64,000 nt of DNA from Candidatus Beckwithbacteria bacterium GW2011_GWC1_49_16 (GCA_001029675.1 CP011210.1:453663-517662), one strand, 5' to 3'; shown: positions 2,039-21,556, counted from the first letter of the stretch. Notes: generated by a model not told the origin, from the sequence alone. Translations and numbers: made by a program.

Positions 2039-2311
2039 TTACCGATTCAGATACATAATTTCCTTAAAAACTCTTCTCAGTTGAATTTTCAACTCGGCCC
2101 TACCTTTACCGCCTTTTAAGTAGACCTCTCGTCCTTTTGCGTCAGCTCTGTTTTTGTAGGCTTCGTAGTAAATTAACTCTAACGGTAAACGATGTTTGGT
2201 TGCTTTAACGTAGCCGTTATTGTGTTTTTTAAGCCTCGCCTTTAAGTCGGGAGTATAGCCGGTGTAAAGTTTTCTATCTTTCTTTGAGAATAAAATATAG
2301 ACGTAGTGCAT
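2039..2311 (-). CDS. GIY-YIG nuclease family protein
   Basis: 90 aa. MHYVYILFSKKDRKLYTGYTPDLKARLKKHN matches the GIY-x10-YIG motif and the conserved Arg of the UPF0213-type small GIY-YIG proteins. It is the first AT-rich gene of the island. Confidence 0.8.
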   Translation of the reverse strand: MHYVYILFSKKDRKLYTGYTPDLKARLKKHNNGYVKATKHRLPLELIYYEAYKNRADAKGREVYLKGGKGRAELKIQLRRVFKEIMYLNR

Positions 2312-2573: not shown

Positions 2574-3218
2574 ATGGCAAAAAAGACAAAACTAGTGAGC
2601 ATGCGAAAACCGATCTATTTAGTGCTATTTATAGTAATTCTCGCTCTCGGTGCTCTAATCTGGTACAAAAACTGGCAAAGCAAGTTTGAGGCTCCGAAAC
2701 AAGGTACTCAATTAATTGGGTTTACGATTAAGAAAGACACTTCCTTAATGGCGGTAGTTGGCGATCTTCACTATTACGGATTTATTAAGGATGAGGATGC
2801 CTTTAAATACGCTTTAGAGCACACAAAGGACAATACTCCAGGCAAGGCGAATGCTCTTACCATTGGTAATAACACTATCGACCGAGAAGCTAGATATAAA
2901 ATCTCTCAGAGTATGACTGCTTGGCAAATAGCAGACGTACTGCTTAACCAAGGTGAACTTAGTACATGCGACCATGGCTGTCCTGATAGTAATTTTGATC
3001 CAGAACTTCTTCCTGGTGGGGATTTAGCTCCTACTCTGAAAGAAAAGTATTCTGGGGTCAAAACTTACGAAGATTGCACTAAGGCAATTGGTCATGACGG
3101 AGGTCAACTCTCTTCAGAGCAATATGCCCAAAGAACAGGAATCAGAAGATGTGTTGCCCCTGATGGTCGAGAATTTACTCAAGGAAAAGAGGGTTGGTCG
3201 GACGTTCCTACTCCTTAG
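2574..3218 (+). CDS. hypothetical membrane-anchored or secreted protein
   Basis: 214 aa with an N-terminal TM/signal anchor (IYLVLFIVILALGALIWY) and a Cys-containing extracytoplasmic domain. No recognisable family. Confidence 0.5.
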   Translation: MAKKTKLVSMRKPIYLVLFIVILALGALIWYKNWQSKFEAPKQGTQLIGFTIKKDTSLMAVVGDLHYYGFIKDEDAFKYALEHTKDNTPGKANALTIGNNTIDREARYKISQSMTAWQIADVLLNQGELSTCDHGCPDSNFDPELLPGGDLAPTLKEKYSGVKTYEDCTKAIGHDGGQLSSEQYAQRTGIRRCVAPDGREFTQGKEGWSDVPTP

Positions 3219-4012
3219 CTAGTTATTTTTTCTTTATTTACCAGCGCCACGCTTTTGTTTAGCTCGTCCTTCAAAACGCTGAGCTCTGTTAACAACCCCT
3301 GTTTTCCAAAATATTTGGCTGCCACCTCCATTATTCTGCGTAACATATCAAATGCTCCAATCAAGTTGTTTTCCTGACCCTTAGTTTGTGGACCAGCAGA
3401 AAAGGTGGTGACATCATCAATTTTTGCAGACACTAATTGATTCAATACAATTGGCTGTGAATGAGCGTGCTGACTGGCTAAATTGTAGAAAACATCGTAC
3501 TCCCAACTACACCCAGTCTTCTTACAGAGTTCCTTAAAACTATAGCCTGACCATTTATACTTATCTGGCCTCTTATACCTCTTGTAAAACTGGATCTTTG
3601 CTTTGAGTCTTGCTTGGTAAATATCCAACGGAAACTCTTTCTTAAGCCTTCTTTTATTTTTTGCGTAGTCGAGCATGAAAAATTGTTGTACTTGGATATG
3701 CTCAATATATCGCCTAGCTCGAGTGTCTCTTTTTGTTTCATTAAGAATGTAGGTTAAATTTACCAAATCCTCAAACATTGAACGGACGATACTGTCCGCC
3801 TCCATACCATATCCAGACTTACACAAAATAACAGTAGCAGAATGACTGCGAATAGCTTTAGCAATTAAAGCTAGAAGAATATCAGTTTTGCGTGTTTTTG
3901 ATGGTGCCGTAAAACTGTTGAAGTGTTTTCCAGCCGCCGTTAATAAACGATCATTAAGTTCAAATAAACTCAATGAATCTTCAATGACACTTTTTGTCTG
4001 GTCTCTATTCAT
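3215..4012 (-). CDS. hypothetical protein, last gene of the LexA-CBASS operon (possibly HEPN-like)
   Basis: 265 aa. Its start overlaps the upstream gene's stop by 4 nt. It contains an R-x4-H (RRYIEH) and HAH residues. A JAMM-like spacing was checked and does not fit. Confidence 0.5.
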   Translation of the reverse strand: MNRDQTKSVIEDSLSLFELNDRLLTAAGKHFNSFTAPSKTRKTDILLALIAKAIRSHSATVILCKSGYGMEADSIVRSMFEDLVNLTYILNETKRDTRARRYIEHIQVQQFFMLDYAKNKRRLKKEFPLDIYQARLKAKIQFYKRYKRPDKYKWSGYSFKELCKKTGCSWEYDVFYNLASQHAHSQPIVLNQLVSAKIDDVTTFSAGPQTKGQENNLIGAFDMLRRIMEVAAKYFGKQGLLTELSVLKDELNKSVALVNKEKITS

Positions 4013-5679
4013 AGGTTAATTTTATTTCCCTTGCTATCGGCAATACTCATCTGTATTTTAGACTTTTGCTTCGGATATTTCTTCAAAAACTCTTGGTTTT
4101 CACTGACTAAAGATACGGTGTAATAAACAGTTCCATCTTTCCTTTTCAAATCTCTGCCGTGGAGTAAGCCCTCTCTCCTAAGTTTTTTAATCGAAGATGG
4201 ATGGACTCCGTGATTAGATGTAATCTGCAATCTTTCAAACCAGTTACTTTTATCGTCATGGCGATGCTTGAGGGGTGGAATAACGCCTTCTTTGATATTG
4301 TTCCAGCAATCTCTGCACCATAAACCGTTTAATGTCCACCAGATATCCTTTCCGTAGTAATACTCTCCACAAATTCCACAAGTATATGGACCTTTACCGT
4401 CGTCAAGGTAGAATCCTTCTGGCTCTTTCTCAAGTCTTCTTTTTCGTGTTGCTTCGATTCCATCAAATTCACCAGACATTCTTGCGAGTTGAACCAGGTT
4501 ATGACTCATATACTTAGCTCGTTTTTCTGAGTCACTGTTTGATTTTGGAGTTTTAACTTCTTTTTTGGCTCCAACCAATTCAAGTAAATCTTCTTCTTGC
4601 TCATATGCTTTCAGAGTGCCAGACAGATATCCAAGGCGATAGCGGATTCCATCACTCATAAGTCTCCAGTTGGTGTCTTCTAAAGTATCTTTCAGGAGTT
4701 TCTTGAGGGTTGCTTCGCTTATATTAGGATTTCTTGTTGAGTTAGCATCTAAAACATTAAAAGGAATCGTAACAAACCTGCCCATATCAGGTTTATCCAG
4801 CGTGAACTTAACGTATTTCTCCTTTTCCAATTTTTCAGTAAGCAATTTCTCGATTTCAAGAACGGTTAATCTTTTTAGATTGACTGCTGTTTGGTAGGCT
4901 TTGTCATCATATTTCTGTTTTTCTTCTTCATACACTTCATGACCTACTTCCATTGCTTCGAGTGTTTCGACGTGTTCTATGCCATCTTTTTCGTTTAAAC
5001 AAAACTCTCCTCGATACTTTTCAAGAAGTTTTTTGCCTTCTTCTTCCTTTTTCTTTTGCTCTTCCTCCCATTTCTTATGCTCCTCATCATGTTTAGCAAG
5101 ATCCTCAATTTCAGTTTTTGTATAACCACAGGCTTTGCATTTATGTTTCCAAGTAATGACTTTGCCTTTTCGAGTAGCTTTTATATCCATTTCTTCTTTG
5201 CACTTTGGGCAAAGGTCAGGCTTTGATAAGCGGATCTCATTATCGTCATATACCCACTGTTGTTTCTCGCATTTACTGCATTTAAAAAGAAACATCATGC
5301 GCATGATCGGGTTATCGTATGAGTAATCAAGGTGTTTTGAAGAATTGAAAGACATTGAACCGCCACAGAGGGGGCAAACAATTCCTTCTGGGATTGGAGT
5401 GTGATCTTGCTTATCCTGTTTTAGTTTGTCTTCTTCCATCCACTTCTGGATAGTTTCTTGTTTCTTTTCATACCTTTTGCCTTTTATAGTAAAAAGGGTA
5501 CGATGAAGCATAAGGTTTGCGTCATGCGATTTGACTTCTTGGGAAATATCCTTAAGCTCTTCGCTAGTAAGACTAGTTTTATAAATATCCTGAAACATTT
5601 TTACCGTATCAAGACACTCTTCAATGGTATGAAGGTCGTAGCGGTCAACATAATTTTGTTCATCATTTAGGTATTGCAT
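4009..5679 (-). CDS. multi-zinc-ribbon protein with a coiled-coil/Lys-Glu-rich linker, function unknown
   Basis: 556 aa with three CxxC...CxxC clusters (CPLCGG...CSKC; CPKC...CKAC; CGICGE...CRDC). The gene is translationally coupled on both sides, overlapping its neighbours by 17 nt and 4 nt. Confidence 0.5.
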   Translation of the reverse strand: MQYLNDEQNYVDRYDLHTIEECLDTVKMFQDIYKTSLTSEELKDISQEVKSHDANLMLHRTLFTIKGKRYEKKQETIQKWMEEDKLKQDKQDHTPIPEGIVCPLCGGSMSFNSSKHLDYSYDNPIMRMMFLFKCSKCEKQQWVYDDNEIRLSKPDLCPKCKEEMDIKATRKGKVITWKHKCKACGYTKTEIEDLAKHDEEHKKWEEEQKKKEEEGKKLLEKYRGEFCLNEKDGIEHVETLEAMEVGHEVYEEEKQKYDDKAYQTAVNLKRLTVLEIEKLLTEKLEKEKYVKFTLDKPDMGRFVTIPFNVLDANSTRNPNISEATLKKLLKDTLEDTNWRLMSDGIRYRLGYLSGTLKAYEQEEDLLELVGAKKEVKTPKSNSDSEKRAKYMSHNLVQLARMSGEFDGIEATRKRRLEKEPEGFYLDDGKGPYTCGICGEYYYGKDIWWTLNGLWCRDCWNNIKEGVIPPLKHRHDDKSNWFERLQITSNHGVHPSSIKKLRREGLLHGRDLKRKDGTVYYTVSLVSENQEFLKKYPKQKSKIQMSIADSKGNKINL

Positions 5680-6496
5680 TCTTTTTGTTTAATCCTTTTA
5701 AACTGAATACTGGCTGTTTAAAATGAGATCCACCGAACATGCTGTTCCATTCATCTTTGTCATTTATGTAGAAACTAGAAATGTCTTTACTGCTAACAGG
5801 TTTTTTATAATGCAACAGGATTATTGCTCGCATATTATTCAGTAGTGAGCAGACAAAGAGACACTTCCCGAAAATTCTGCCAATCTTAAAATTCAACGTA
5901 TGCTGTAAGACTATTGGAACTCCATCTCTGGTTTCCTTAGAAAAATAAGTAATCGTACTATCGGAGTCGTTCAGCTTAAAATGTTGTCCATTCCCAACGG
6001 AGATAGAAAGAGTTGTCTGGCTATGATTGGCTTTAACCCTATAACCATGTTTATAGGCATTGAGCAGATCGTAGTCGCCTAAATAATCCTTAGCGACTTC
6101 CTTAATTAAATTTGTATAAAGATTATATTTCTCATTTGTTCCACTATTATCTTTGAGAACAGAAAAGATTAATTTAAAAAACCAGGATGAAAGTTCCGTC
6201 GTCTTAGCGAAATTCTCACTAATGAAGTTGCGAAGATTAAAAGAATCGATAAATAAGGCTGAAGGGAATCTGTCAACCGTGACCGACAAAGCATGAGAGT
6301 TAATAAATAAAATCTCTGTCGCCTGTAAATAAAGCGTATATAAATCTAAGACAACTCTGTTTTGTTTTTTCTTATCCTTCAATCTTTCAAACTTGTTATA
6401 TAGCTGGATTGTCTTTTTAGTCAAACTATCGAAATCAGCATTTTCGTAGTGTGAAAGTTTAAAATCATCCAATTCTTTTTCTAAATCCGGAGTCAT
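5663..6496 (-). CDS. hypothetical protein co-transcribed with the CBASS effector
   Basis: 277 aa. It overlaps the effector gene by 4 nt (ATGA coupling). The region is AT-rich. No recognised motif. Confidence 0.5.
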   Translation of the reverse strand: MTPDLEKELDDFKLSHYENADFDSLTKKTIQLYNKFERLKDKKKQNRVVLDLYTLYLQATEILFINSHALSVTVDRFPSALFIDSFNLRNFISENFAKTTELSSWFFKLIFSVLKDNSGTNEKYNLYTNLIKEVAKDYLGDYDLLNAYKHGYRVKANHSQTTLSISVGNGQHFKLNDSDSTITYFSKETRDGVPIVLQHTLNFKIGRIFGKCLFVCSLLNNMRAIILLHYKKPVSSKDISSFYINDKDEWNSMFGGSHFKQPVFSLKGLNKKNAIPK

Positions 6497-7119
6497 AGCG
6501 TTTTATATTCCAGTTGTTCAGCATCCTCGAAATTTTCAGCAATCATGCAGGAATACCTGTCCAAGATAACAGTCCCAGCACCTTTTCTATCTGTAAAGTA
6601 ACTACCGAGCAATTTCTTGACTGGATTCCCTACAATATCAAATACGCTTGCTCCATCATGCGGTCTGTTATTATCTCTCTTACCATAAGGTGCTTCACTC
6701 TTATACAGATAAACAAGCTTTTTTCTATCTGGTTCTTCTTCAATCTTGGCGGTGACAGATTTAGAAGCCGACGGTTTCTTAAAGAATGAGCGGACTGATA
6801 CAGAAGTAAAAGTCTGATTAATAGCAACATAAATATCAGTCTCGCCGCTCATACCTTTCTCGTCACTCTCAAATTTTAGTTTTCCTTTCCATGTTCCATA
6901 AAGAATTGGCACTCCTAAAAATTGAGCTAGATATTTAAAGATCCACTTTCTCCAAATCCATTTATCATATGTAGTCCAGATAATAACCACCAAACTAGTT
7001 GCTCCCGACAACCAACGGAACAAGTTATCGTCAATAGACTGTCTCGTTACGAACGATAAAACAAAGATAAGTACTGAATATAAGAGAATGGCAGTTTTGA
7101 TTATTCGTTGCTGATTCAT
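6493..7119 (-). CDS. 2-TM membrane effector, Cap15-like candidate CBASS effector
   Basis: 208 aa. Two N-terminal hydrophobic helices (IIKTAILLYSVLIFVLSFV; SLVVIIWTTY) are followed by a soluble domain of about 130 aa. Its start lies 1 nt after the cyclase stop. Confidence 0.55.
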   Translation of the reverse strand: MNQQRIIKTAILLYSVLIFVLSFVTRQSIDDNLFRWLSGATSLVVIIWTTYDKWIWRKWIFKYLAQFLGVPILYGTWKGKLKFESDEKGMSGETDIYVAINQTFTSVSVRSFFKKPSASKSVTAKIEEEPDRKKLVYLYKSEAPYGKRDNNRPHDGASVFDIVGNPVKKLLGSYFTDRKGAGTVILDRYSCMIAENFEDAEQLEYKTL

Positions 7120-7120
7120 A

Positions 7121-8023
7121 TTATTTATTTAATAAGTTATAGGCACTCTTTATAAATTGTTTAGCATCATCTTTGGTCCAGTTTTGTTGTCCGTGGAATA
7201 AATATTTACATCCATTTACCTCACGCCACCTACAATCTTCAGAAAGAGTGTACTCGTCTTTTAGTAAATATGTCCACACCTCCTCACATCCTCTCAAAAC
7301 AATATCACGCCAAATCTCATTATTTGTGTAAATAGGATTGCTGACGTTATATGCCAAACTTTCAATCATGAATGATGGAAAGGGCGAGGTGTTGTTATTC
7401 TCAGAAAGGTGACCGTTAACATTTTTTAGAATACGTGCCACATTTTTAAATCGCTTCGAGGTCGAAGTATTTTTCTCAATTCCATTTTCAAGATGTTGAT
7501 CAGGGTAATTGAAATGTCTAATGCCATCAGGTCTGTTTAAAATTAACTGTATACCTTGGTTGTAATTTGTAGATCCAGTCGAATAATAATACCGATATGT
7601 GGTACATGGAATTATGTCAGCATCCAGTATCTTATCTGACCCTCTAATTTTGAAAACCTTATTACCTGATGAATCGACCAAGTTCTTCCCGAACTCAGTT
7701 TCTAGTGCTTTCTGTAAGCGAAGTTTAAAATCAATTTCTGAAATGCCTGTATAGCCGAAAAGACCAGTATTTGAAAATCCAACGCCTTCAGCATAGTTCA
7801 GGTTGATCATATCTTGTAGCTCAACAGCAATATCAATGTCTGAGTCATGTCTAACATTAGTATTATTTGGATAGGATCCTTTTGCAAAAACCCTAATACC
7901 CAAGTCACTCAAATGAGTATCAACAGCTGATTTAACAGTATCTTTTGTCTTTTCTGCTCTTTCCTCCTCGTTGTTAAACCAAGGTTTGATCCAGCCAGAT
8001 AGTTGATCATCGCTAATATTCAT
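7121..8023 (-). CDS. cGAS/DncV-like nucleotidyltransferase (CD-NTase, SMODS-type CBASS cyclase)
   Basis: 300 aa. It has the Pol-beta superfamily signature FAKGSYPNNTNVRHDSDIDIAV (GS...DxD) and a downstream third acidic residue (ILDADIIP). Its size and motif spacing are typical of CD-NTases. Confidence 0.7.
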   Translation of the reverse strand: MNISDDQLSGWIKPWFNNEEERAEKTKDTVKSAVDTHLSDLGIRVFAKGSYPNNTNVRHDSDIDIAVELQDMINLNYAEGVGFSNTGLFGYTGISEIDFKLRLQKALETEFGKNLVDSSGNKVFKIRGSDKILDADIIPCTTYRYYYSTGSTNYNQGIQLILNRPDGIRHFNYPDQHLENGIEKNTSTSKRFKNVARILKNVNGHLSENNNTSPFPSFMIESLAYNVSNPIYTNNEIWRDIVLRGCEEVWTYLLKDEYTLSEDCRWREVNGCKYLFHGQQNWTKDDAKQFIKSAYNLLNK

Positions 8024-8043
8024 AGATAGTTATTTTTTATTCA

Positions 8044-8253
8044 TCACTTTGCCTTACTCCTGTTATATGGATGCCTGTTGTGCGGCATAAGTGAAACATT
8101 TAAATCTTGAGCCTTAGCTTGTATCGCCCCAGGAGTTCTACTCATCTTTAATCCAATAACTCTCGTAGGGGTGTTACCTCTCGCGAGTTTTCGTAGTTGG
8201 GATTCCTGAGTCGGAGACCATTGTTTTCCTTGATTTGCTGGTTTCTTTGTCAT
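8044..8253 (-). CDS. small HTH DNA-binding protein resembling the GcrA N-terminal domain
   Basis: 69 aa. WSPTQESQLRKLARGNTPTRVIGLKMSRTPGAIQAKAQDLNVSL follows the W-x3-E...L-x2-L...G...I...L...R...A...AK...L pattern of GcrA-type or phage HTH proteins. Its start is 2 nt from the lexA stop and its stop is 20 nt upstream of the cyclase start. Confidence 0.45.
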   Translation of the reverse strand: MTKKPANQGKQWSPTQESQLRKLARGNTPTRVIGLKMSRTPGAIQAKAQDLNVSLMPHNRHPYNRSKAK

Positions 8254-8255
8254 AA

Positions 8256-8879
8256 TTAATCACCGCCTTTCTTAATAACATCCTCGACAACGCCTTGAAT
8301 AGAGAAGTCTTCAAATAATAATATTGGTTTATTTTTTGGGTTAGTAGATTCTGGTTGAAGACGTACGTAGCCATCTTCAGGAATTATCTTCTTAATTGTT
8401 GCCTCATCACCAATAAGTGCGACTACACGACTACCGGGGTCAGCTGTTTGCTGTTTTTTAATTAGGACAAAATCTCCATCATCAATTGTTTTTCCGGAAA
8501 CTCTGGCGTTATTCATACTGTCGCCTATTGCCCGTAGGAAAAAATAATTGTCCGGAGTTCCACTGATCTTCGAAGCATCAAATTGAATGTAGGCCTCAAC
8601 ATTTTCGGTAGCTAAGAATGGAACTCCACACGCTACATTGCCTACAAGGGGAATTTGTACTTTGTCAGATGAGTCCGGTAAAGCTAATCCTCGAGTATTT
8701 TCCAGATACCCCTTTTCTTTCAGTGCATCAGTGTGTCGCTGAACGGAGCTTATACTAGCTAAACCCAAGGTCACACGAAGTTCTTCAAGTGTGGGAGTTG
8801 TACCATTTTTATTTGCCTGATCCTTAATAGAAGACAGGACTATCTTTTGCTTTGAGGTTAAAGTCTTTCTCATACGCAC
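8256..8879 (-). CDS. lexA: LexA-like S24 autopeptidase repressor
   Basis: 207 aa. The N-terminus is a LexA-type winged helix (TPTLEELRVTLGLASISSVQRHTDALKEKGYLE). It has a VACG cleavage-site-like segment, the Ser nucleophile GDSM and a downstream KK. Confidence 0.85.
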   Translation of the reverse strand: MRMRKTLTSKQKIVLSSIKDQANKNGTTPTLEELRVTLGLASISSVQRHTDALKEKGYLENTRGLALPDSSDKVQIPLVGNVACGVPFLATENVEAYIQFDASKISGTPDNYFFLRAIGDSMNNARVSGKTIDDGDFVLIKKQQTADPGSRVVALIGDEATIKKIIPEDGYVRLQPESTNPKNKPILLFEDFSIQGVVEDVIKKGGD

Positions 8880-9084
8880 TATTCTACTCTAACTAGCGTA
8901 ATTATGCAAGGGGATTAGTTATTATAAAAAGCCTGTCAAGGGGGTAATTTCATCAAACAGTTTATAAATTGCTGTGTTGATTTAGCCCAATATATCGGTC
9001 TATTTATCATGTAACCCAGGGTTTCACCCACCCCTCCGTGTCACCCGGGCTATATCAAAACGGGGTGATATTGTTATCTTAATT
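8880..9084. promoter_or_regulatory. divergent promoter/operator region between the lexA operon and the ParB-MTase/terminase operon
   Basis: Contains ACAG-N11-CTGT (8957-8975) and CTGT-N20-ACAG, neither of which is a canonical SOS box. It also contains two direct TCACCC copies plus an inverted GGGTGA (9024-9068) just upstream of the 9085 start. Confidence 0.4.
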
Positions 9085-10407
9085 ATGAAAAACATACCTA
9101 TCCAAACGATCGAAGTTCCAATAATGGACCTAGTCTCACCAGACTACAATCCTCGTAAGCATGACGATCTGGCAAAGGAACAATTAAAAGAAAGTATCAG
9201 ACGCTTTGGGATCGTTGACCCAATTGTGGCAAACTCTGCACCAACTCGTAAAAATATAATCATCGGTGGAAATTTTAGATGGGAAACCATAAAGGAGTTG
9301 GGATATAAAACTGTTCCAGTCGTTTATGTAGATATTTCAGATCTGGAAAAGGAAAAAGAGTTGAACATTCGTCTCAATAAGAATACAGGTGAATTTGATT
9401 GGGATTTACTTGCTAAGTTTGATGAGTCATTCCTTGCTGATATTGGTTTTTCCAGTGGTGAACTCGATGGTATTTTTGATATTGACGTCCCAGAAGAATT
9501 CGACCTTGAAAAAGAACTTAAAAAGTTAAATATCCAGAAGATCAATGTTCAAAAAGGTGACATCTATTCTCTTGATGACTCAAAACTAATGTGTGGGGAT
9601 TCTACTATTGAAGCTGATATCTTAAAACTCATGGATGGTAAAAAAGCAGATATGTGTCTGACTGATGAACCATATTTGCTCGATTACGTTGGTGCAAAAC
9701 GTCACGGAAAACCAACAACTGGCTTTGGTGCCAAACGTAACAGAAGGTATCTTGAAACCGATGTTTTGCCGCCTAACTTTATATCCCTTTGGATGTCAAA
9801 TATCGCAAAGGTAGCAAAACCAGATTTCAGCATCATCTCGTACGAAAATTGGAAGAACACCCGAGCCATGTGGGACGAGATCGAGAAGTATTGGAAGGTG
9901 CGCAACATGCTGATATGGAGATTACCAAACAGACACCAGGGGTTTTCAGCTAAATATAAATTTTTCTCAAAATACGATATAGCTATGGTTGGAACAAGTG
10001 AGGGAAACCAAATAAATACAGAGGTGGAAGAAGAACTCCTGCAAAACGAATACGAAACCGCCTTGTATGCAACTTCAGGAAAGCCTCATTGGGAAGGCTA
10101 TGAACATGGAAAGAAGAATCAGCCAACCGATTTTATAGAGTTTAATGCTTCGGATGAAAAACACTCTGGTCAGGGAGTTGTGTTTGGCTGTAAGCCTACA
10201 GAGATTCTTATCCCCTATATCAAGATGCTTACAAAACGTGGCGATTTAATTGTCGAGCCATTTGGGGGAAGTGGAAGCACTCTAATTGCGGCCACCAAAA
10301 TGAAACGACGATGTTACATCATGGAAAAGTCTCCTGTATATACAGAGGTAATTATAAAACGCTGGGAAAATTTAACGGGACAAAAAGCCAAAAAAATCTA
10401 TGGATAA
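9085..10407 (+). CDS. ParB-like nuclease domain fused to a DNA methyltransferase (beta-class N6A/N4C)
   Basis: 440 aa. The N-terminus has a ParB/Srx fold (DYNPRKHD...IVDPIVAN...IIGGNFRWE). The C-terminus has a degenerate DPPY-type motif (TDEPYL) followed by an FGGSGST AdoMet-binding motif, in the permuted beta order. Phage and plasmid ParB-MTase fusions have this architecture. Confidence 0.75.
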   Translation: MKNIPIQTIEVPIMDLVSPDYNPRKHDDLAKEQLKESIRRFGIVDPIVANSAPTRKNIIIGGNFRWETIKELGYKTVPVVYVDISDLEKEKELNIRLNKNTGEFDWDLLAKFDESFLADIGFSSGELDGIFDIDVPEEFDLEKELKKLNIQKINVQKGDIYSLDDSKLMCGDSTIEADILKLMDGKKADMCLTDEPYLLDYVGAKRHGKPTTGFGAKRNRRYLETDVLPPNFISLWMSNIAKVAKPDFSIISYENWKNTRAMWDEIEKYWKVRNMLIWRLPNRHQGFSAKYKFFSKYDIAMVGTSEGNQINTEVEEELLQNEYETALYATSGKPHWEGYEHGKKNQPTDFIEFNASDEKHSGQGVVFGCKPTEILIPYIKMLTKRGDLIVEPFGGSGSTLIAATKMKRRCYIMEKSPVYTEVIIKRWENLTGQKAKKIYG

Positions 10408-10819
10408 CACTATCGAAAAAAGGCAATCAAAAAATAAAGAACAGCTGTTAGAGATACTAAAGAAAACTCCAATAGTTCAAATTGCCTGTGAAAAGGCTGG
10501 AGTAAGTCGAGCCACCTATTATCGATGGCGTAAAGATAACTCTGGATTTTCTCAGGCAAGTGATCAGGCATTATTAGATGGAAGCTTGCTGATAAATGAT
10601 ATGGCCGAAAGTCAAATGATAAGCGCTATCAAAGACAAGAATATGACTGCCATAATCTTTTGGCTTAAGACTCATCATGATGCCTATCGCAATAGAGTTG
10701 AAGTAACCACAACCAATGGCAACCAAGAAATTAACCTTACAGATGAACAAAAGGAACTGTTAAATAAAGCAATAGAGATGGCGGCATTAATTCCGCCCAA
10801 AGAAAACAGCAATGAATGA
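10400..10819 (+). CDS. terS: phage terminase small subunit (HTH type)
   Basis: 139 aa. It has an N-terminal HTH (IACEKAGVSRATYYRWRKDN) and directly precedes, and overlaps, the terminase large subunit. Confidence 0.65.
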   Translation: MDNTIEKRQSKNKEQLLEILKKTPIVQIACEKAGVSRATYYRWRKDNSGFSQASDQALLDGSLLINDMAESQMISAIKDKNMTAIIFWLKTHHDAYRNRVEVTTTNGNQEINLTDEQKELLNKAIEMAALIPPKENSNE

Positions 10820-12356
10820 CCAAGAACAAATAATCAAACAAATTCAGGAAAATCCTGACTTTCGGAAAGTATTAACGAAGGAGAATTTCTATTGGTTTTT
10901 TGTTACCTACTTTCCCCATTATATAACTTGCCCAACCGCTGATTTTCAAAAGGAAATCTTCAATCTCATTCAGAATGAGGAATTACAAAAAATCACAATC
11001 ACAGCCTTTCGCGGGTCGGCAAAATCTACTATTGCAACTTTGGCACTACCCATTTGGGCAATGGTCGGTAAACCCACCAAAAAATATACTCTACTAGTGA
11101 GCTTAACTCAGGGGCTTGCCAAGCAAATTCTTACGAACATAAAACAGGAGCTTTCATCAAACGAACTCCTAATGCGGGATTTTGGACCATTTTCAGAAGT
11201 GGCTGAAGAATGGCGATCTAACTCTCTTGTAATACCACGTTACAATTCCAGAATTTCAGCCATATCGCAAAGTGAAAGAATTAGAGGTCTCAGGCATAGG
11301 CAGTACCGACCAGACCTTATCATTATTGATGATGTTGAGGATCTAGAATCGGTTAAGACAAGAGAAAGCAGAGACAATCTTTGGAATTGGTTTTCGGGTG
11401 AAATAAAGCCTATTGGAGATAGTGGTACCAGAATTATTACCGTAGGCAATTTACTACATTTGGACTCGCTAATGATGCGGATTAAGCAAAACGTTCAAGC
11501 AGGCGCAATGGACGGTATTTATAAAGAATTTCCTTTGTTAGATAGTTATGGAAATATTGCCTGGCCTGGAAAATATCCGACTATGGAGGATATTGAAGCC
11601 AAAAGAAAAGATGTTGCCGACGAGGCAGCTTGGTATCGAGAATTTTTACTAAAAATTATTGCGGACGAAGACAGAATTGTTAAAGGAGCTTGGATTAAAT
11701 ACTACGACACCCTACCGGACTTTGATCGCTATCCGGCAAGATTAATTGCCATAGGAGTCGACTTGGCTATTTCTCTTTTGGCGTCAGCAAATTTAACAGC
11801 CTTAGTACCAGCATACATAGTTGGTTACGGAGACAATCTCCAAGTTTATATTTTGCCTTACATTTTAAACAAACGATTGGATTTTCCTCAAACTATTCAG
11901 GCAATTAAAATTCTTACTGAAAAACTAAAAGTCGGTTATAGACCGCACCCTAGGGTATATATAGAAAGCGTGGGGTATCAGAGTGCGGCTGCCCAACAAC
12001 TAATAGTAGAGCATGTTCTGGCCGAGGAAGTTAGAATTCCACAGTTAGACAAAAGATCAAGACTATCGATAATTTCTCCACTTATTGAGCAAGGCAAAGT
12101 ATTTTTTCCCAGATCAGGAGCTGAAGTGTTAATTGATCAATTACTGAACTTTGGAGTGGAAAAATACGATGATCTAGTTGATGCTTTCACCTTACTTATG
12201 TCAAAAATAATTGAAACAGACCACCCAACGAACAGAAGTACTCATTCAGATTTGCCACCAGAACCAGATCCACACCCTGGTTTGACATGGTCACTTGAAC
12301 ATATGAATGACTTAGGATTTGATCTTGAAACCATCAAACTAAATATGGTTTTCTAA
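10812..12356 (+). CDS. terL: phage terminase large subunit
   Basis: 514 aa with a Walker A (FRGSAKST), a Walker B (DLIIIDDVED) and a C-terminal RNaseH-like nuclease region. No portal or capsid genes follow. Confidence 0.85.
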   Translation: MNDQEQIIKQIQENPDFRKVLTKENFYWFFVTYFPHYITCPTADFQKEIFNLIQNEELQKITITAFRGSAKSTIATLALPIWAMVGKPTKKYTLLVSLTQGLAKQILTNIKQELSSNELLMRDFGPFSEVAEEWRSNSLVIPRYNSRISAISQSERIRGLRHRQYRPDLIIIDDVEDLESVKTRESRDNLWNWFSGEIKPIGDSGTRIITVGNLLHLDSLMMRIKQNVQAGAMDGIYKEFPLLDSYGNIAWPGKYPTMEDIEAKRKDVADEAAWYREFLLKIIADEDRIVKGAWIKYYDTLPDFDRYPARLIAIGVDLAISLLASANLTALVPAYIVGYGDNLQVYILPYILNKRLDFPQTIQAIKILTEKLKVGYRPHPRVYIESVGYQSAAAQQLIVEHVLAEEVRIPQLDKRSRLSIISPLIEQGKVFFPRSGAEVLIDQLLNFGVEKYDDLVDAFTLLMSKIIETDHPTNRSTHSDLPPEPDPHPGLTWSLEHMNDLGFDLETIKLNMVF

Positions 12357-13336: not shown

Positions 13337-13504
13337 ATGGAAGAACTATTAACTCTCAAAGAAGCGGCACAAGTCTTAAAGGTTCATGCGAATACATTGC
13401 GTTTATGGGACAAAAAGGGTGTTCTGAAAGCTATACGTATTGGGGTAAAAAGGGTGAGAAGATATAAAAAGGAAGATATTGAAAAGTTTATACACAAGAA
13501 ATAA
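13337..13504 (+). CDS. small MerR/excisionase-type HTH protein, possible R-M controller
   Basis: 55-aa ORF not in the track because it is under 60 aa: MEELLTLKEAAQVLKVHANTLRLWDKKGVLKAIRIGVKRVRRYKKEDIEKFIHKK. It matches the AlpA/Xis/MerR-N HTH signature and ends 2 nt before the hsdR start. Confidence 0.55.
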   Translation: MEELLTLKEAAQVLKVHANTLRLWDKKGVLKAIRIGVKRVRRYKKEDIEKFIHKK

Positions 13505-13506
13505 TT

Positions 13507-16017
13507 ATGCAAAAAGAAGCAAAAGCACGGATCAAAATTAACAATCTTCTTCAGGAGTCCGGCTGGAGATTTTTTGATGATGAGCATGGAACGGCGAATA
13601 TAGTTCTAGAAAACAATGTCAAATTGACAAAGCAGGTAGTTGACGAATTAGGCAATGATTTTGATAAAACCAAGAACGGTTTCATAGATTTTCTTCTACT
13701 TGATGAAAAGTGTTTCCCTTATGCAGTGCTGGAAGCTAAATCTGAGGACAAAGATCCTCTAGATGGGAAAGAGCAGGCTAGAAGATACGCCCAGTCACAA
13801 AACGTTCGTTTTATTGTTCTTTCCAATGGTAATGTTCATTACTTCTGGGATTTAGAGCGAGGCAATCCATCTTTTATTTCCTCGTTTCCCACACAAGAAT
13901 CTCTCAAACATTTTGTTTCGTACAAGCCAGACTCTAAGAAATTGACAGAAGAAAAAGTTTCAGAAGATTACATAGCTTTAACTCAAAATCCTACATACCA
14001 AAAAGATCCTCGCTGGCAAGATGAGGTACTTAAACACGATCAAATTCAAGAACAGGATTTGAAGTTTCTACGCCCATATCAACTTAGGGCCATAACTGCT
14101 TTGCAAGAATCTGCCCAAAATGGCAATGACCGTTATCTTTTTGAAATGGCAACTGGTACCGGTAAGACTCTAACCTGTGCCGCCGTTATCAAGCTTTTCC
14201 TGAAAACTGGCAATGCCAAACGAATTCTCTTTTTAGTTGACCGTATTGAGTTGGAAGATCAGGCGGCCAAGAATTTCAAAAAATATTTGGCTAAAGATTT
14301 CACCAGCGTTATTTATAAAGAAAATCGTGATGATTGGCGTAAAGCTGAAATTGTGGTTTCGACTGTTCAAAGCCTTTCAACTAATAATAAATATCAGAAG
14401 TTATTTAATCCTACCGATTTTGATTTAATTATCTCTGACGAGGCACACCGTTCAATTGGTGGTAATAGTAGAGCTGTCTTTGAGTATTTCGTGGGTTACA
14501 AGCTAGGACTTACGGCTACGCCTAAAAACTACCTGAAAGGTATTGATCCAAATCAGCTTAATGCTCGTGATCCTCGGGCTTGGGAAAAACGTCAACTTCT
14601 AGATACCTATAAGACTTTTGGTTGTGAAACAGGAGAACCAACCTTCCGCTATAGTCTTCTTGACGGTGTCAAAGAAGGTTTTCTGGTCAACCCAATAGTT
14701 GCTGATGCCAGAACGGAGATTACTACACAACTCCTTTCTGATGAAGGGTATTCTCTTTTAGTTGATACAGAAGAAGGCAAAGAGGAACAAGTTTTTTATC
14801 AATCAGATTTTGAGCGAAAGTTTTTCTCTGACAAAACTAATCTAATTTTTTGTGAGACTTTCTTAAAGAATGCCTTGATGGATCAAATCTCTGGAGAGGT
14901 TGGCAAAAGCATTATTTACTGTGTGAGTCAAAAACATGCCAGTAAAATTACACAGCTTCTAAATCAGCTCGCTGATAGTTACTGGCCAGGAAAATATAAT
15001 TCCGATTTTGCTGTGCAGGTAACTTCTAATATTCCTGATGCTCAGCAATTCACAATAGGCTTTGCTAATAACAACCTTAATGGTCACACGCCTTGGCTGG
15101 AAGGTTATAAGTCCAGCAAAACTAGAGTTTGCGTGACGGTGGGTATGATGACTACTGGCTATGATTGCCAAGATATATTAAATCTTTGTTTAATGCGGCC
15201 AATTTTTTCCCCAACAGATTTCATTCAGATCAAAGGACGTGGTACACGAAAATACGCCTTTACCTTTGAAAATCGTGAGAATGGTGAAATTGAGAAAGTC
15301 AGGGTTGATAAAGAAAAATTCAAATTATTTGATTTCTTTGCTAACTGTGAGTATTTCGAAGAGAAATATAACTATGATGAAATTCTAAAAATTCCTAAGA
15401 CAATTTCGGGCACAGGACCAGGCGGAGAACCTACGGTTAATATTGATGTGACCATTGGTATCCCAGATCCTCTCAAAACATTCCAAGAAAAAGCGATTGG
15501 TTTACAAGGAATGAAAGTAGATCGCAAGATTTTTGAAAAGTTTGAGGAAACGGTTAAGGCAGATTCTTTCATCAAAGAAAAATACGAAGCTGGCGATATG
15601 CAGGCAGTTGAGGATTATGTGAAGACTGAGGTTTTTGATAAACCTGAAGATTATTTCAATTTAGACAAGCTTCGTAAATCAGTCAAGGTTGACCGTCGGC
15701 TTTCCCTGGGAGAAATAATGGATAAGATTTTTGGGCGGTTAGATAAATTTAAAGATAAAGATGAACTTTTAGAGGAAGAGTTTGAAAAGTTTATCTCAAT
15801 TTACAAGCCAGATAGTAAGTACTACTACCCAATAAAGAATTTCCTCAAAGCTTATATTACTGATAACGAGATTAGAGAAATTGTAGAAACAAAGGAATAC
15901 GGTCGGTTTGCAACAAACCCAAAAGTATCACTAGTAGACTTTAAGGCCTTGAACGGGTACCGTGACGTCGTGCCAGAGTATGTAAAGGACTACGTATCAG
16001 TTAATACGTATATGTAA
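13507..16017 (+). CDS. hsdR: type I restriction enzyme R subunit (short form)
   Basis: 836 aa. The N-terminus is an HsdR_N-type PD-(D/E)xK domain (IDFLLLDEKCFPYAVLEAKS). SF2 helicase motifs follow: GTGKT (Walker A), DLIISDEAHRS (DEAH), and TTGYDCQ motif VI. Confidence 0.8.
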   Translation: MQKEAKARIKINNLLQESGWRFFDDEHGTANIVLENNVKLTKQVVDELGNDFDKTKNGFIDFLLLDEKCFPYAVLEAKSEDKDPLDGKEQARRYAQSQNVRFIVLSNGNVHYFWDLERGNPSFISSFPTQESLKHFVSYKPDSKKLTEEKVSEDYIALTQNPTYQKDPRWQDEVLKHDQIQEQDLKFLRPYQLRAITALQESAQNGNDRYLFEMATGTGKTLTCAAVIKLFLKTGNAKRILFLVDRIELEDQAAKNFKKYLAKDFTSVIYKENRDDWRKAEIVVSTVQSLSTNNKYQKLFNPTDFDLIISDEAHRSIGGNSRAVFEYFVGYKLGLTATPKNYLKGIDPNQLNARDPRAWEKRQLLDTYKTFGCETGEPTFRYSLLDGVKEGFLVNPIVADARTEITTQLLSDEGYSLLVDTEEGKEEQVFYQSDFERKFFSDKTNLIFCETFLKNALMDQISGEVGKSIIYCVSQKHASKITQLLNQLADSYWPGKYNSDFAVQVTSNIPDAQQFTIGFANNNLNGHTPWLEGYKSSKTRVCVTVGMMTTGYDCQDILNLCLMRPIFSPTDFIQIKGRGTRKYAFTFENRENGEIEKVRVDKEKFKLFDFFANCEYFEEKYNYDEILKIPKTISGTGPGGEPTVNIDVTIGIPDPLKTFQEKAIGLQGMKVDRKIFEKFEETVKADSFIKEKYEAGDMQAVEDYVKTEVFDKPEDYFNLDKLRKSVKVDRRLSLGEIMDKIFGRLDKFKDKDELLEEEFEKFISIYKPDSKYYYPIKNFLKAYITDNEIREIVETKEYGRFATNPKVSLVDFKALNGYRDVVPEYVKDYVSVNTYM

Positions 16018-16022
16018 ATATT

Positions 16023-19000
16023 ATGTTAACTCAAGAAACAAAACGAAAAATAGATTCAGCCAGAGATATCCTGGTTGGTAAAGTTCCTGATCCTAAAGCT
16101 CAAGTTGAACAAATTACAACAGCCATGATCTATAAATTCATGGATGATATGGATAAAGATGCTGTGGAACTTGGAGGCAAAGCTCGCTTCTTTACTAATG
16201 GATTTGAAAAATATGCTTGGAGCAAACTTTTAGATTCTAGATTGGGTGGACACGAACGATTAGACCTTTACGCTGAAGCCATAGTACAGATGTCCAGTAA
16301 TCCCCATATTCCCCAATTATTTAGGGATATTTTTAAGGACGCATTTCTACCATATCGTAGTCCGGAAACATTGAGCTTATTCCTTAAGGAGATCAACAGT
16401 TTTACATACGATCATAGTGAGGATTTAGGTGATGCTTTTGAGTATCTACTTTCTATCATGGGTTCCCAAGGAGATGCTGGGCAGTTTCGTACTCCACGTC
16501 ACATAATCGATTTTATAGTAGCTGTAGTTGATCCCAAAAAAGACGATTCAATTTTGGACCCTGCTTGTGGAACTGCTGGATTTTTAATCTCTGCATATAA
16601 ACACATTCTCAAACAACACGATGGTAGGGATGATCCGAAACATAAAGAAAAACCGTTAACACCTGACGACAAAAAGCGATTAATGAACAATCTTTTCGGC
16701 TACGATATTAGTCCTGACATGGTTAAGCTCTCCAAAGTAAACATGTACCTGCATGGCTTTGCTGAACCCAAGATTTTTGAATATGACACTCTTTCTAGCG
16801 ATGAAAAATGGGACGAGACATATGACGTAATTATGGCAAACCCACCATTTATGACTCCAAAAGGCGGCATACGCCCACACAAGCGGTTCAGCGTACAAGC
16901 AAATCGTGCCGAAGTGCTGTTTGTGGATTATATTAAAGAACACCTACGGCCGAATGGTCGAGCGGGAATTATTGTACCTGAGGGGATCATTTTTCAGTCA
17001 GGCAATGCATATAAACAACTCCGTAAAATGTTAGTTGAAGATGGTCTGTTTGCGGTAGTTTCATTACCTAATGGAATATTCAATCCTTACTCTGGGGTAA
17101 AGACAAGTATTTTGTTTTTTGATAATGTGTTAGCAAAAAGAACAAATGAAATATTGTTCGTAAAAATTGACAGCGATGGATTTGACCTCGGAGCTCAAAG
17201 AAGGAAAATTGAAAGTAATGACCTCACTGCCGCCCTGATAATTTTGAAGAAATATATAGAGGACCCCAACACTACTCTCCTAATCGAAGTAAAAAACTTA
17301 GCCACCTTGGTTTCAAAAACAAGAATTTCTGAGAAGGGTGATTATAACTTGAGTAGTGATGAATACAAACAAACCGAAGTAATAAGCAACAAGAGATGGC
17401 CAATGAAGGAATTGGGAAGTTTATTCGAAATGATAAACGGGAGAGCATTTAAAAAAGAAGAATGGAAAACCAACGGAACGCCCATTATCCGAATAGCAAA
17501 TCTCAATGACAATAATGCTGAATTCAATTATTTTGAAGGAAATTGTGATGATAAAATTATTGTCAAAAATGGCGACCTACTTTTTTCCTGGTCAGGAACT
17601 CGTGGCACTTCATTCGGCCCACATATATGGAATAGAGGCAAGGGTGTTCTTAATCAACACATATATAAATTTCAACCCTTACAAGGAGATATAGATATTG
17701 CTTTTGCTTATCTTGTTATAAAAATAATTGTTCCCGAGATCGAAGCCCAAGCTCATGGTGCTGGGGGTCTGGTACATATTACGAAAGAAAAACTTAAACA
17801 TTTTAGAATTCCTGTTCCACCACTTCCTGTTCAAAAGCAAATAGTTGAACAAATTGAAGGTTATCAAAAGATCATTGAGGGAGCAAAACAAGTTGTAAAA
17901 AATTGGAAACCAATAACTGATATCAATCCTGATTGGGAAACAGCACTGATCCAGGATCTTTGTACTTTGGTGCGTGGTAGTTCACCTAGGCCTAAAGGAG
18001 ATAAACGGTATTACGATGGAAAAATCCCCAGACTGATGGTCTCAGACGTAACTAGAGATGGCATGTATACAACTCCCCAAACTGATTCGCTTACAGAAGA
18101 AGGATCTAAGCTTAGTCGTCCAATGAAAAAGGGTGAAGTTGTAATGGCTGTAAGCGGTAATCCAGGGTTGCCAACAATTCTTACAGTTGACGCATGTATC
18201 CATGACGGTTTTGTCGGATTTAGAAAGCTGTCCAGTAAAATAATTCCAGAATTTCTATATTTTATACTTTTGCGCCAAAAGGATGAAAATAACTCTCGAT
18301 CAGTTGGTGCAGTATTTAAAAATCTAACTACAGACCAAATAAAGAAGTTTAAGATTCCTGTCCCCCCTATCAATATCCAACTTGAATTAGTTGAACAAAT
18401 AACCCAAGAGCGTCAGGTTGTTGGTGCCAATGAAGAAATCATCAGAGAGTATGAGGCTAAAATTCAGAACGAGATAAAGGATGTTAATGATGGAAAAGCA
18501 CACTCTCCCCTAAGTAAGAATCAAAATGAACTAATTAAACAGCTTAAGGACGACTTTGAGTCAATTGAGTCAGAAGTTATTAGGATGATGGGCAACAAGG
18601 AGATATTCAAAGAGATTATTGAGATCTCTAAAAGAAATAGCCAGATAAATAAGGGTAACTCCCTGTGGGACTTTCTAAAAGAAAGTTATGTTGCACTAAT
18701 GGTGTCTGCGGTTTGTAGGCAAATTGATACAGACGAACGTTCGTCTAGCTTGGTAAATCTTTTAAGAACAATTCTTTTTAACCCGACAGTTATCCAGAGC
18801 TTAAACAAGGACTGGTATAGCGAACAATATCATCGCGATAACGACATCTTTCCAGGTTTCATGGAAGGAATCGGGAAGGGTGATTTTGAGGAACACTTTG
18901 GTTCAAAAGAATATGTAGATCCAGCTATCGTTTACATGGATCTAAAGAAGCTAGAGGAAGATACAAAAGAAATAAAGAAATACCGCAATAAAAGAATTGC

Positions 19001-19184
19001 CCATTTTGATAAAAAGGAATCACTTTTCAAAGCAAATTATGATGATTTGCATAAAGCAGTAGAAACTGTACGATCAATCGCAAGTAAATATTACTTACTG
19101 CTTAAACAGGGTGGCAATGATCTTATTCCGTCTGATCAAACCGATTGGCAGGAGATACTAACAATTCCCTGGATCAAAAAATAA
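16023..19184 (+). CDS. hsdMS: type I R-M HsdM-HsdS fusion with a C-terminal HEPN/Abi-like domain
   Basis: 1053 aa. The N-terminus is an N6-adenine MTase (DPACGTAGFL motif I; MANPPF motif IV). Two HsdS target-recognition domains follow (LGSLFEMINGRAFKKEEW...NQHIYKF; LCTLVRGSSPRP...FILLRQK) around a central conserved helix. The extra C-terminal domain of about 250 aa contains RNKRIAHFD (R-x5-H). Confidence 0.8.
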   Translation: MLTQETKRKIDSARDILVGKVPDPKAQVEQITTAMIYKFMDDMDKDAVELGGKARFFTNGFEKYAWSKLLDSRLGGHERLDLYAEAIVQMSSNPHIPQLFRDIFKDAFLPYRSPETLSLFLKEINSFTYDHSEDLGDAFEYLLSIMGSQGDAGQFRTPRHIIDFIVAVVDPKKDDSILDPACGTAGFLISAYKHILKQHDGRDDPKHKEKPLTPDDKKRLMNNLFGYDISPDMVKLSKVNMYLHGFAEPKIFEYDTLSSDEKWDETYDVIMANPPFMTPKGGIRPHKRFSVQANRAEVLFVDYIKEHLRPNGRAGIIVPEGIIFQSGNAYKQLRKMLVEDGLFAVVSLPNGIFNPYSGVKTSILFFDNVLAKRTNEILFVKIDSDGFDLGAQRRKIESNDLTAALIILKKYIEDPNTTLLIEVKNLATLVSKTRISEKGDYNLSSDEYKQTEVISNKRWPMKELGSLFEMINGRAFKKEEWKTNGTPIIRIANLNDNNAEFNYFEGNCDDKIIVKNGDLLFSWSGTRGTSFGPHIWNRGKGVLNQHIYKFQPLQGDIDIAFAYLVIKIIVPEIEAQAHGAGGLVHITKEKLKHFRIPVPPLPVQKQIVEQIEGYQKIIEGAKQVVKNWKPITDINPDWETALIQDLCTLVRGSSPRPKGDKRYYDGKIPRLMVSDVTRDGMYTTPQTDSLTEEGSKLSRPMKKGEVVMAVSGNPGLPTILTVDACIHDGFVGFRKLSSKIIPEFLYFILLRQKDENNSRSVGAVFKNLTTDQIKKFKIPVPPINIQLELVEQITQERQVVGANEEIIREYEAKIQNEIKDVNDGKAHSPLSKNQNELIKQLKDDFESIESEVIRMMGNKEIFKEIIEISKRNSQINKGNSLWDFLKESYVALMVSAVCRQIDTDERSSSLVNLLRTILFNPTVIQSLNKDWYSEQYHRDNDIFPGFMEGIGKGDFEEHFGSKEYVDPAIVYMDLKKLEEDTKEIKKYRNKRIAHFDKKESLFKANYDDLHKAVETVRSIASKYYLLLKQGGNDLIPSDQTDWQEILTIPWIKK

Positions 19185-21280: not shown

Positions 21281-21455
21281 CCTCAACACCAAGACTGGTG
21301 TTCTTCTCGTGGCTTAAATGCAGGGGAAAAATAGAGGGAAATCTGTGTATTACAGGATCTAAAACGACATTTCGAACAATTCGATCAAAGATTAGCAAGC
21401 AACATCGGGCTTTTCAGCGCAGGCCAACGGGTCGCGCTGAACCTTACGATATATG

Positions 21456-21527
21456 TGACCCCACAGGGAATCGAACCCTGGTTTTCAGGATGAAAACCTG
21501 ATGTCCTAACCGCTAGACGATGGGGCC
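21456..21527 (-). tRNA. tRNA-Glu (UUC)
   Basis: Cloverleaf folded by hand from the reverse complement: GGCCCCA/TGGGGTC acceptor, TCAGG-TTTTCAT-CCTGA anticodon arm (anticodon TTC), T-loop TTCGATT. 72 nt with no encoded CCA. Confidence 0.85.
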
Positions 21528-21556
21528 CTTCGGCAAGCTCAGGGCTAAAGCCCTGG

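Follow-up and report, generated by a model that had tools for sequence, protein, structure and literature searches.

A LexA repressor heads a predicted CBASS operon with interchangeable defence cargo on a candidate integrative element of Patescibacteria

Abortive-infection systems such as the cyclic oligonucleotide-based antiphage signalling systems (CBASS) need restraint, and the regulators CapH/CapP, CapW and CapK/CapS sense DNA damage without an SOS repressor. The question raised here is whether the SOS repressor itself, LexA, can be placed in charge of such a system. The locus that raises it lies in a 64,000-nucleotide stretch of the genome of Candidatus Beckwithbacteria bacterium GW2011_GWC1_49_16 (CP011210.1:453663-517662; this whole stretch is called the window below), where seven genes on the minus strand at 3215-8879 begin with lexA and include a CBASS cyclase and its effector. 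Our analysis suggests that these genes form an autoregulated, SOS-inducible operon that serves as a defence-cargo slot on a ~19-kb integrative element of Patescibacteria, a reading that we consider probable, though with appreciable doubt. The window and about 60 relatives suggest a simpler route to restraint than the known regulators, in which defence genes share an operon with, and lie downstream of, a LexA that cleaves itself.

To judge by its domains, its score and its conserved residues, the product of the first gene (8256-8879, minus strand; 207 amino acids (aa) as called) is a bona fide LexA, with a winged helix-turn-helix (HTH) and an S24 Ser/Lys peptidase. It matched the Pfam families LexA_DNA_bind (PF01726, 1.7e-12) and Peptidase_S24 (PF00717, 9e-23), and scored 134.8 bits against the NCBIfam equivalog TIGR00498, for which the cutoff is 110.95. 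Alignment of 24 LexA homologs revealed that Cys84-Gly85 (VACG), Ser121 (GDSM), and Lys163 (TIKK) are invariant. The LexA-like S24 repressor that an earlier note on this DNA had put at the head of the operon thus passes the curated LexA cutoff with its catalytic residues unchanged in the family. Cys-Gly is the cleavage site of the UmuD type, and we infer that the protein cleaves itself at Cys84-Gly85 by means of Ser121 and Lys163 in a RecA-dependent manner. The recognition helix, SSVQRH, was invariant across homologs of 64-100% identity. In all, 474 LexA homologs were found, many of them 60-93% identical to the window protein. One homolog, P0094, is 100% identical and 205 aa long, and because of this the true start is likely to be the ATG at 8873, which gives a LexA of 205 aa.

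The third and fourth genes make up what, by domain content and active-site residues, is a minimal type I CBASS with its parts intact. The cyclase (7121-8023, minus strand; 300 aa) is a CD-NTase of the CdnE clade. A failure of this protein to match CD-NTase/SMODS profiles had been named in the earlier note as refuting; we found a match to the PADLOC Cyclase model at 3.3e-100, and the family profile matched solved CdnE structures at 3e-80. The residues of the GS...DxD...D site (G49, S50, D62, D64, and D136) are invariant in the family. The effector, Cap15 (6493-7119, minus strand; 208 aa), consists of two N-terminal transmembrane (TM) helices and a beta-barrel that binds cyclic dinucleotides, and matched Pfam Cap15_CD_rec (7.5e-15) and PADLOC 2TM (6.6e-38). 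The assignment of a CD-NTase with a 2-TM effector therefore holds. No match to the CBASS accessory models (Cap2/Cap3, HORMA/TRIP13) was observed among the other five genes of the operon.

A search for the cyclase family over 185,579 species genomes returned 80 loci. The cyclase adjoins Cap15 in every one of them, and in 79 there is no LexA, the exception being locus L011. Elsewhere, then, the pair is, as far as gene neighbourhoods tell, a self-sufficient two-gene type I CBASS. In one Patescibacteria lineage (L005-L008), CdnE and Cap15 (71% and 78% identity) lie on a conjugative-type element with type IV secretion system genes (TraC/TraG-like proteins and pilins), next to a divergent 69-aa HTH protein of the XRE family and not to LexA. 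The order LexA to CdnE-Cap15 was also found in L100, L102, and L118, where LexA is 90%, 78%, and 65% identical to that of the window. The placing of a lexA-like regulator ahead of a CD-NTase, called unusual in the earlier note, is recurrent within this family and no isolated case. As a separate observation, L011 (8799-11199) has an unrelated LexA-like S24 protein (27% identity) at the head of genes for an HNH-like protein of 102 aa, a DUF2188 protein, CdnE, and Cap15, and a different promoter motif, a direct repeat in which ATCCTACAAT occurs twice. This looks like an independent assembly of the same LexA-headed logic in another Patescibacteria genome.

Whether LexA can govern the CBASS pair depends on whether the genes share one transcript. 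The listing of open reading frames (ORFs) gave seven minus-strand ORFs at 3215-8879 with junctions of 2, 20, 1, -4, -17, and -4 nt, reproducing exactly the gene order and the six gap values reported earlier, and coupling motifs (ATGA or TAAxATG) were present at three of the six junctions. Consensus scans found 14 promoter-like sites within the operon, compared with 20.5 expected by chance, and six terminator-like sites, compared with 4.3 expected, a number that we do not regard as above chance. Internal promoters or terminators between lexA and the cyclase, which had been named as refuting the one-unit reading, showed no surplus over the operon as a whole. Because the spacing is tight, the junctions are coupled and there are no surplus internal signals, we infer that the seven genes are co-transcribed as one unit with lexA first. 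A terminator-like hairpin, a weak candidate from the consensus scan, lies ~50 nt past the last stop codon (3141-3164, minus strand).

It is very improbable, in our estimate, that either cdnE-cap15 or the three final genes are expressed from internal promoters independently of LexA. There is no space for intergenic promoters between genes that lie 2, 20, and 1 nt apart or overlap by 4, 17, and 4 nt, promoter-like matches fall below the chance expectation, and the related loci L001 and L009 retain the tight junctions. What speaks for such promoters is that in 80 genomes the same pair of CdnE and Cap15 works by itself as a module of two genes, that the gap between lexA and the cyclase is 170 nt in L118, and that weak promoter-like matches do occur within the genes.

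If the operon is a single unit, its control should be found upstream of lexA. The region 8880-9084, to which the earlier note had pointed, does hold a conserved promoter and a palindromic candidate operator. On the minus strand, a -35 box (TTGCAT, 8904-8909), whose TTGCAy sequence and position are kept in an alignment of relatives, is followed after 17 nt by a -10 box (TAGAAT, 8881-8886), with the same geometry in nearly all relatives. When the divergent intergenic regions of the window and two relatives were aligned, a TTGCAy-17-TAnAAT promoter was conserved, and this geometry recurred in most of 59 distinct lexA promoters. An alternative promoter proposed by an automatic scan (TTTATA-16-CATAAT, 8928-8901) was set aside because TTGCAT-17-TAGAAT alone is conserved in relatives. 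The ATG at 8873 lies 7 nt after the -10 box, and for this reason the lexA mRNA is predicted to be leaderless.

The candidate LexA operator, TACGCTAGTTAGAGTA (8885-8900, minus strand), takes up the spacer of the promoter and extends into the -10 box. In the family the palindrome is 16 bp long and reads TACGCTA-GT-TAGCGTA, i.e., TACGC-N6-GCGTA. Over 2.34 Mb of fetched loci, an exact TACGC-N6-GCGTA site occurred 20 times, each time directly upstream of lexA, with ~2 expected by a rough estimate, and the window copy is the sole one in the 64 kb. Among the 59 promoters, 13 have a perfect N6 palindrome, eight a perfect N5 palindrome, and seven a near match. A shared operator fits the LexA of this family, since its recognition helix is invariant. 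We consider it most likely, on this pattern of conservation, that LexA binds the promoter palindrome and represses its own gene.

Several observations weigh against this reading, or against its completeness. The window operator has one mismatch, in its right half (GAGTA), and most of the remaining 31 of the 59 promoters carry the left half-site, TTACGCTA, alone, with a degenerate right half. With roughly half of the family's promoters degenerate on that side, the proposed operator may not capture the complete site. A further operator was looked for around the divergent methylase and terminase genes and throughout the 10 kb on either side of lexA, and none turned up; neither recA (by a Walker motif search) nor another SOS gene was seen in the 64-kb window. 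Finally, the gene for the 556-aa protein described below lies upstream of lexA in some relatives, outside the unit that LexA would control.

Two features of the intergenic region stand beside these results. The spacing of the half-sites is 5 or 6 nt across relatives (L125-L131, L147, and L156-L159 compared with the window, L001, and L009) despite the invariant recognition helix. Relatives also have a second conserved intergenic element, in which GTCACGGAGGG comes after a perfect palindrome of 21 bp, AACCCCGTTGACAACGGGGTT (L009, 6975-7015; L001, 6990-7030; also L090 and L092), which has diverged in the window (~9005-9060), and a CCGATATATCGG-like palindrome lies close to it. This element had no Rfam match; it could be bound by a different regulator, serve as a site for packaging, or correspond to a small hairpin RNA.

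We next consider to whom this LexA belongs. The lexA gene is inside a low-GC island at ~2.0-21.5 kb (~19 kb), with ~38% GC compared with ~51% in the flanks. Divergent from lexA is a plus-strand backbone module (9085-12356) encoding a ParB_N-N6/N4 DNA methyltransferase and the terminase subunits TerS and TerL. The border of the island is formed by tRNA-Glu and tRNA-Lys (21455-21628), and next to them, at the edge, is the gene for a large serine recombinase (19925-21280, plus strand); these two tRNAs were the only Rfam matches over 1-24000. Direct or inverted repeats of at least 12 nt that join the island ends as att sites would were not found. TerL is ~27% identical to its best phage matches, which come from a Mannheimia phage (annotated as terminase large subunit) and from Campylobacter/Helicobacter phages. 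The island ORFs encode terminase, methylase, restriction-modification, regulator, and recombinase proteins, with no capsid, portal, or tail genes among them. The island does not have the make-up of a complete prophage, because the terminase comes without virion genes. In IMG/VR, a search with the single TerL protein gave no relatives and one with the LexA alignment gave one viral contig, so elements of this family are seldom called viral. Its gene content may point to a phage satellite, a packaging module that has been domesticated, a decayed prophage, or another type of element.

These features bear on the possibility that the window LexA is the housekeeping SOS repressor of the host, with a chromosomal defence hotspot downstream and the methylase/terminase module as a domesticated neighbour. 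Such a role would suit a protein that meets the LexA equivalog threshold, belongs to a very conserved family with an invariant DNA-reading helix and a common operator, and has homologs annotated "transcriptional repressor LexA" in their sources; moreover, the L092 copy sits amid housekeeping genes with no recombinase in view. However, the window lexA lies inside a 38%-GC island of a ~51% GC genome, bounded by tRNA genes and a serine recombinase, and the lexA block occupies differing chromosomal sites, next to FUR/ZnuA and DnaG in L001, next to tRNA synthetases and Suf genes in L092, and elsewhere in other relatives. With 474 and 628 homologs, the LexA and 556-aa families are also of similar size, which is what one would expect if both belong to the backbone of a single element. 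We therefore regard a host repressor as improbable and return to a LexA that belongs to the element.

Comparison with related loci shows which parts of the operon are constant. Genes in these loci were taken as simple ORF chains and not from a trained gene finder, and cargo tallies, made from cluster representatives, are approximate. Named homologs come from Patescibacteria, e.g., Shapirobacteria and Roizmanbacteria. Relatives with cyclases 97% and 82% identical to that of the window retain the arrangement TerL-TerS-methylase, divergent from LexA-69aa-cyclase-Cap15-277aa-556aa-like. A metagenome scan added 80 loci. With redundancy removed there were 63 groups, ~36 of them with at least 2.5 kb downstream of lexA. 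The cargo in these ~36 informative groups included a CD-NTase/SMODS cyclase in ~15 (~40%), a large DEAD/ResIII helicase in three to four, and Thoeris and AbiEii in two each. The methylase, TerS, and TerL lie opposite lexA in ~15-17 of the ~27 groups with enough upstream sequence, and the module was also present in L001, L009, L090, L091, L093, and L098. Recombinases flank related elements.

The genes after lexA differ widely. Examples are DUF2188-AbiEii-536aa-p556 (p556 being the 556-aa protein), 172aa-SMODS cyclase-249aa-p556, DUF2188-169aa-SMODS-262aa-p556, DUF2188-ThsB-ThsA-ThsB-NUDIX, 94aa-103aa-1035aa helicase, and a 1255-aa protein of no assigned family. When 101 representatives of cargo clusters were searched with Pfam and PADLOC, matches also included SAVED, SLATT, bacterial HORMA, a 4TM effector, KAP NTPase, and SspH, as well as components of type I and type IV restriction systems. 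Across about 60 related loci LexA recurs, as a rule with a small second gene and in many cases with p556. As the same backbone recurs with differing genes after lexA, we assign LexA, the small second gene, and p556 to the backbone, and CBASS, the 277-aa protein, and the DUF5677 protein to the cargo, an assignment drawn from gene order across relatives. The earlier proposal of a LexA-controlled CBASS module holds in part: LexA heads the operon that carries CBASS, and LexA, the second gene, and p556 are not specific to CBASS. In a separate case, L095-L097 (7120-8901), a diversity-generating retroelement (bAvd and reverse transcriptase, with a 1499-aa target-like protein) is divergent from a LexA-DUF2188-Thoeris operon, on an element with relaxase and TraG-like genes and no terminases.

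The same variability could be explained by hitch-hiking, in which LexA is the repressor of the life cycle of the element, comparable to phage CI or SetR of SXT, and defence genes merely landed behind a reliably active promoter, in the way that rexAB follows cI in lambda. What would count then is that the genes are expressed constitutively for as long as the element resides in the cell; a response to damage would be incidental or even harmful to defence. It is consistent with this that the cargo is highly variable, that LexA goes with the ParB-methylase/TerS/TerL/recombinase backbone and not with any single defence system, that a leaderless repressor mRNA resembles that of lambda cI from PRM, and that in one transcriptome survey the expression of defence genes and of recA was negatively correlated. 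On the other hand, the sole conserved operator is at the lexA promoter and none was seen at the terminase or recombinase genes, so that a life-cycle switch is not visible. The invariant recognition helix is unlike those of phage repressors, which diversify their immunity specificity, and genes behind an autoregulated lexA are necessarily co-induced when LexA is cleaved, as is E. coli dinF. Weighing both sides, we think hitch-hiking unlikely, though it is the alternative to which we give most credence.

Taken together, these results favour a model in which the operon is a LexA-controlled slot for defence cargo. A sigma-70-type promoter, TTGCAT-17-TAGAAT, would transcribe the whole operon, starting with a leaderless lexA message, and LexA bound to the 16-bp palindrome in the spacer would repress its own operon. 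Through negative autoregulation, all products of the operon, LexA and CBASS among them, would be kept low and steady. Since the repressor heads its own operon, this arrangement implies a basal set-point with a boost rather than an off state. RecA filaments formed on single-stranded DNA (ssDNA) after damage, or possibly during phage replication or prophage induction, would stimulate LexA to cut itself and so derepress the entire operon; that the operon responds to DNA damage is a reasonable expectation from this architecture. Upon infection, CdnE would make a cyclic dinucleotide that Cap15 binds, whereupon Cap15 would disrupt the membrane.

The other four proteins of the operon are less readily placed. 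The small second gene (8044-8253, minus strand) encodes a basic 69-aa protein that had no Pfam match even at E = 10 and matched phrog_323, a phage "transcriptional regulator," at 2e-7. A profile of its family (seven members) gave only sub-significant matches in the PDB: SANT at 0.057, Myb at ~0.6, and the GcrA DNA-binding domain (5yiu) at 1.5. Sequence searches of the PDB gave nothing for the 69-aa or the 556-aa protein. The 69-aa protein is probably a Myb/SANT-like three-helix DNA binder, to judge by these profile matches, and the GcrA-N-like label given to it earlier is not upheld, as the GcrA match is weaker than those to SANT and Myb. The slot after lexA has three alternative occupants, namely DUF2188 (19 loci), the 69-aa protein (eight loci, with differing cargo), and a 94-aa protein.

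The 277-aa protein (5663-6496, minus strand) is a cargo protein of a small uncharacterised family with 71 representative clusters. Its AlphaFold model (pLDDT 95) resembles an N-terminal HEPN-like helical domain joined to a C-terminal beta domain. The Rx4-6H catalytic motif of HEPN proteins is absent from the family, which has an invariant L145-N-A-Y-K149-H150-G (LNAYKHGxR) where Leu replaces Arg. Pfam scans of 47 members gave no consistent family, and a PDB sequence search gave only noise.

The 556-aa protein (p556; 4009-5679, minus strand) has 628 homologs and is kept near LexA across elements with different cargo, usually at the 3' end of the operon and sometimes just upstream of lexA. Its AlphaFold (AF2) model (pLDDT 82) contains a helical hairpin, a zinc-ribbon domain with four CxxC motifs, a coiled coil, and an alpha/beta domain, and ends in a zinc ribbon and a winged-helix-like domain; the protein probably binds DNA. 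Foldseek with this model found nothing below E 0.02 in the PDB, where the hits were generic alpha/beta domains. Variants of p556 occur in L125, L127, L130, L131, L132, L162, and L182, either directly upstream of lexA, on the same strand and with the lexA promoter and palindrome in between, or split into separate N-terminal (~360 aa) and C-terminal (~190 aa) genes. The last gene (3215-4012, minus strand; 265 aa) encodes a DUF5677 protein (Pfam, 8.8e-30) and is a variable terminal cargo gene, as it is replaced by a different 260-aa gene in the 97%-related locus L009.

Further genes of the island and its borders were noted. On its other arm (13337-19184, plus strand), a type I restriction operon begins with a 55-aa HTH_17/MerR-like gene and includes a 1053-aa HsdM-HsdS-AbiU2 fusion of methylase, specificity subunit, and AbiU2 HEPN domain. 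In L009 and L090 this small gene stands ahead of other restriction cargo, and this pattern suggests a second variable defence slot on that arm. At the opposite edge are a 90-aa GIY-YIG protein (2039-2311, minus strand) and a 214-aa YceG-like membrane protein (2574-3218, plus strand). GIY-YIG proteins lie beside the elements in L092, L126, L135, L141, and L153, and a YceG-like gene is present in L009, L103, and L104; both may be part of the element. Past the tRNA genes and before ribosomal protein L19, a 444-aa AAA/STAND-like ATPase (22079-23413, minus strand; GC 0.43-0.44) may be a further island gene.

If this model is true, it would link classical SOS signalling directly to immunity and would provide a modular defence slot that can be mined for new systems, as many of the cargo genes are unannotated. 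It would also add a new family of mobile elements for Patescibacteria, a group in which little is known about such elements or about gene regulation. More tentatively, and with less confidence than we place in the operon itself, we hypothesize that these are widespread integrative elements of Patescibacteria, maybe phage satellites, that use a RecA-responsive LexA as the alarm for a plug-in defence slot. Were that so, any defence landing there, be it CBASS, Thoeris, AbiE, or a helicase system, would come under the SOS signal. Classical LexA chemistry would then for the first time be seen to control anti-phage immunity in a general way, and the elements would give a handle on the regulation of suicide defences in ultra-small symbiotic bacteria.

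How does this arrangement compare with known systems? DNA-damage control of CBASS, LexA-headed operons, and S24 repressors co-transcribed with abortive-infection genes are each known. Previously, CBASS was found to be controlled by an adjacent repressor that is inactivated by proteolysis after DNA damage, whereupon expression rises, as in CapH/CapP (Lau et al., bioRxiv 10.1101/2022.04.27.489752); other CBASS regulators are CapW, which has a WYL domain, and CapK/CapS, and such regulators are common to several defence types. The window shares with CapH/CapP a repressor beside the immune operon and, by prediction, its proteolytic inactivation. In contrast to CapH/CapP, a single S24 LexA would both bind DNA and cut itself, presumably via RecA filaments, and the gene for the regulator opens the operon instead of being transcribed away from it. 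There is here no separate metallopeptidase activated by ssDNA, WYL domain, or kinase. No ImmA/IrrE-type metallopeptidase domain like that of CapP was found in the seven genes or their neighbours, which bears out the earlier view that the regulator differs from CapH/CapP. The papers on CapH/CapP, CapW, and CapK/CapS do not mention LexA or S24 regulators, and in the literature we found no precedent for LexA or S24 proteins linked to CBASS or defence in Patescibacteria. The CBASS pair itself has the same two-gene domain content as type I systems of known structure (PDB 7x4f, 7x4c, 6e0m, and 7n34), with catalytic residues intact. The products of the solved cyclases closest to it are cyclic dipyrimidines or cUMP-AMP, and a cyclic dipyrimidine is what we would expect here. 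The difference is that in the window the pair forms cargo, placed between the backbone genes of an operon with LexA at its head.

A self-repressing LexA also heads E. coli lexA-dinF and lexA2-imuA-imuB-dnaE2, where the downstream genes are SOS-inducible, and in the imuAB cassette the LexA copy travels with the cargo. The window operon is LexA-headed in the same way, while its cargo is for phage defence and not for DNA repair or mutagenesis, is interchangeable among relatives, and is part of a unit on an integrative mobile element. In lambda, cI-rexA-rexB combines a self-cleaving S24 repressor and a leaderless message with co-transcribed abortive-infection genes. The likeness lies in an S24 repressor with an abortive-infection system on a mobile element and a message predicted to be leaderless, whereas here the DNA-binding domain is a winged HTH of the LexA type and not a CI-type HTH, no operator is present at the divergent genes, and the element has terminase genes without virion genes. 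P2 prophages, P4-like satellites, and the SXT integrative and conjugative elements have a conserved backbone with a defined slot in which unrelated defence systems are exchanged, as is the case here. In the present family, however, the hosts are Patescibacteria and the slot is inside the repressor's own operon, so that all cargo would inherit LexA control. What appears to be new, from comparison across the family, is an operon headed by a LexA/S24 repressor with interchangeable immune cargo, on a previously undescribed element of Patescibacteria.

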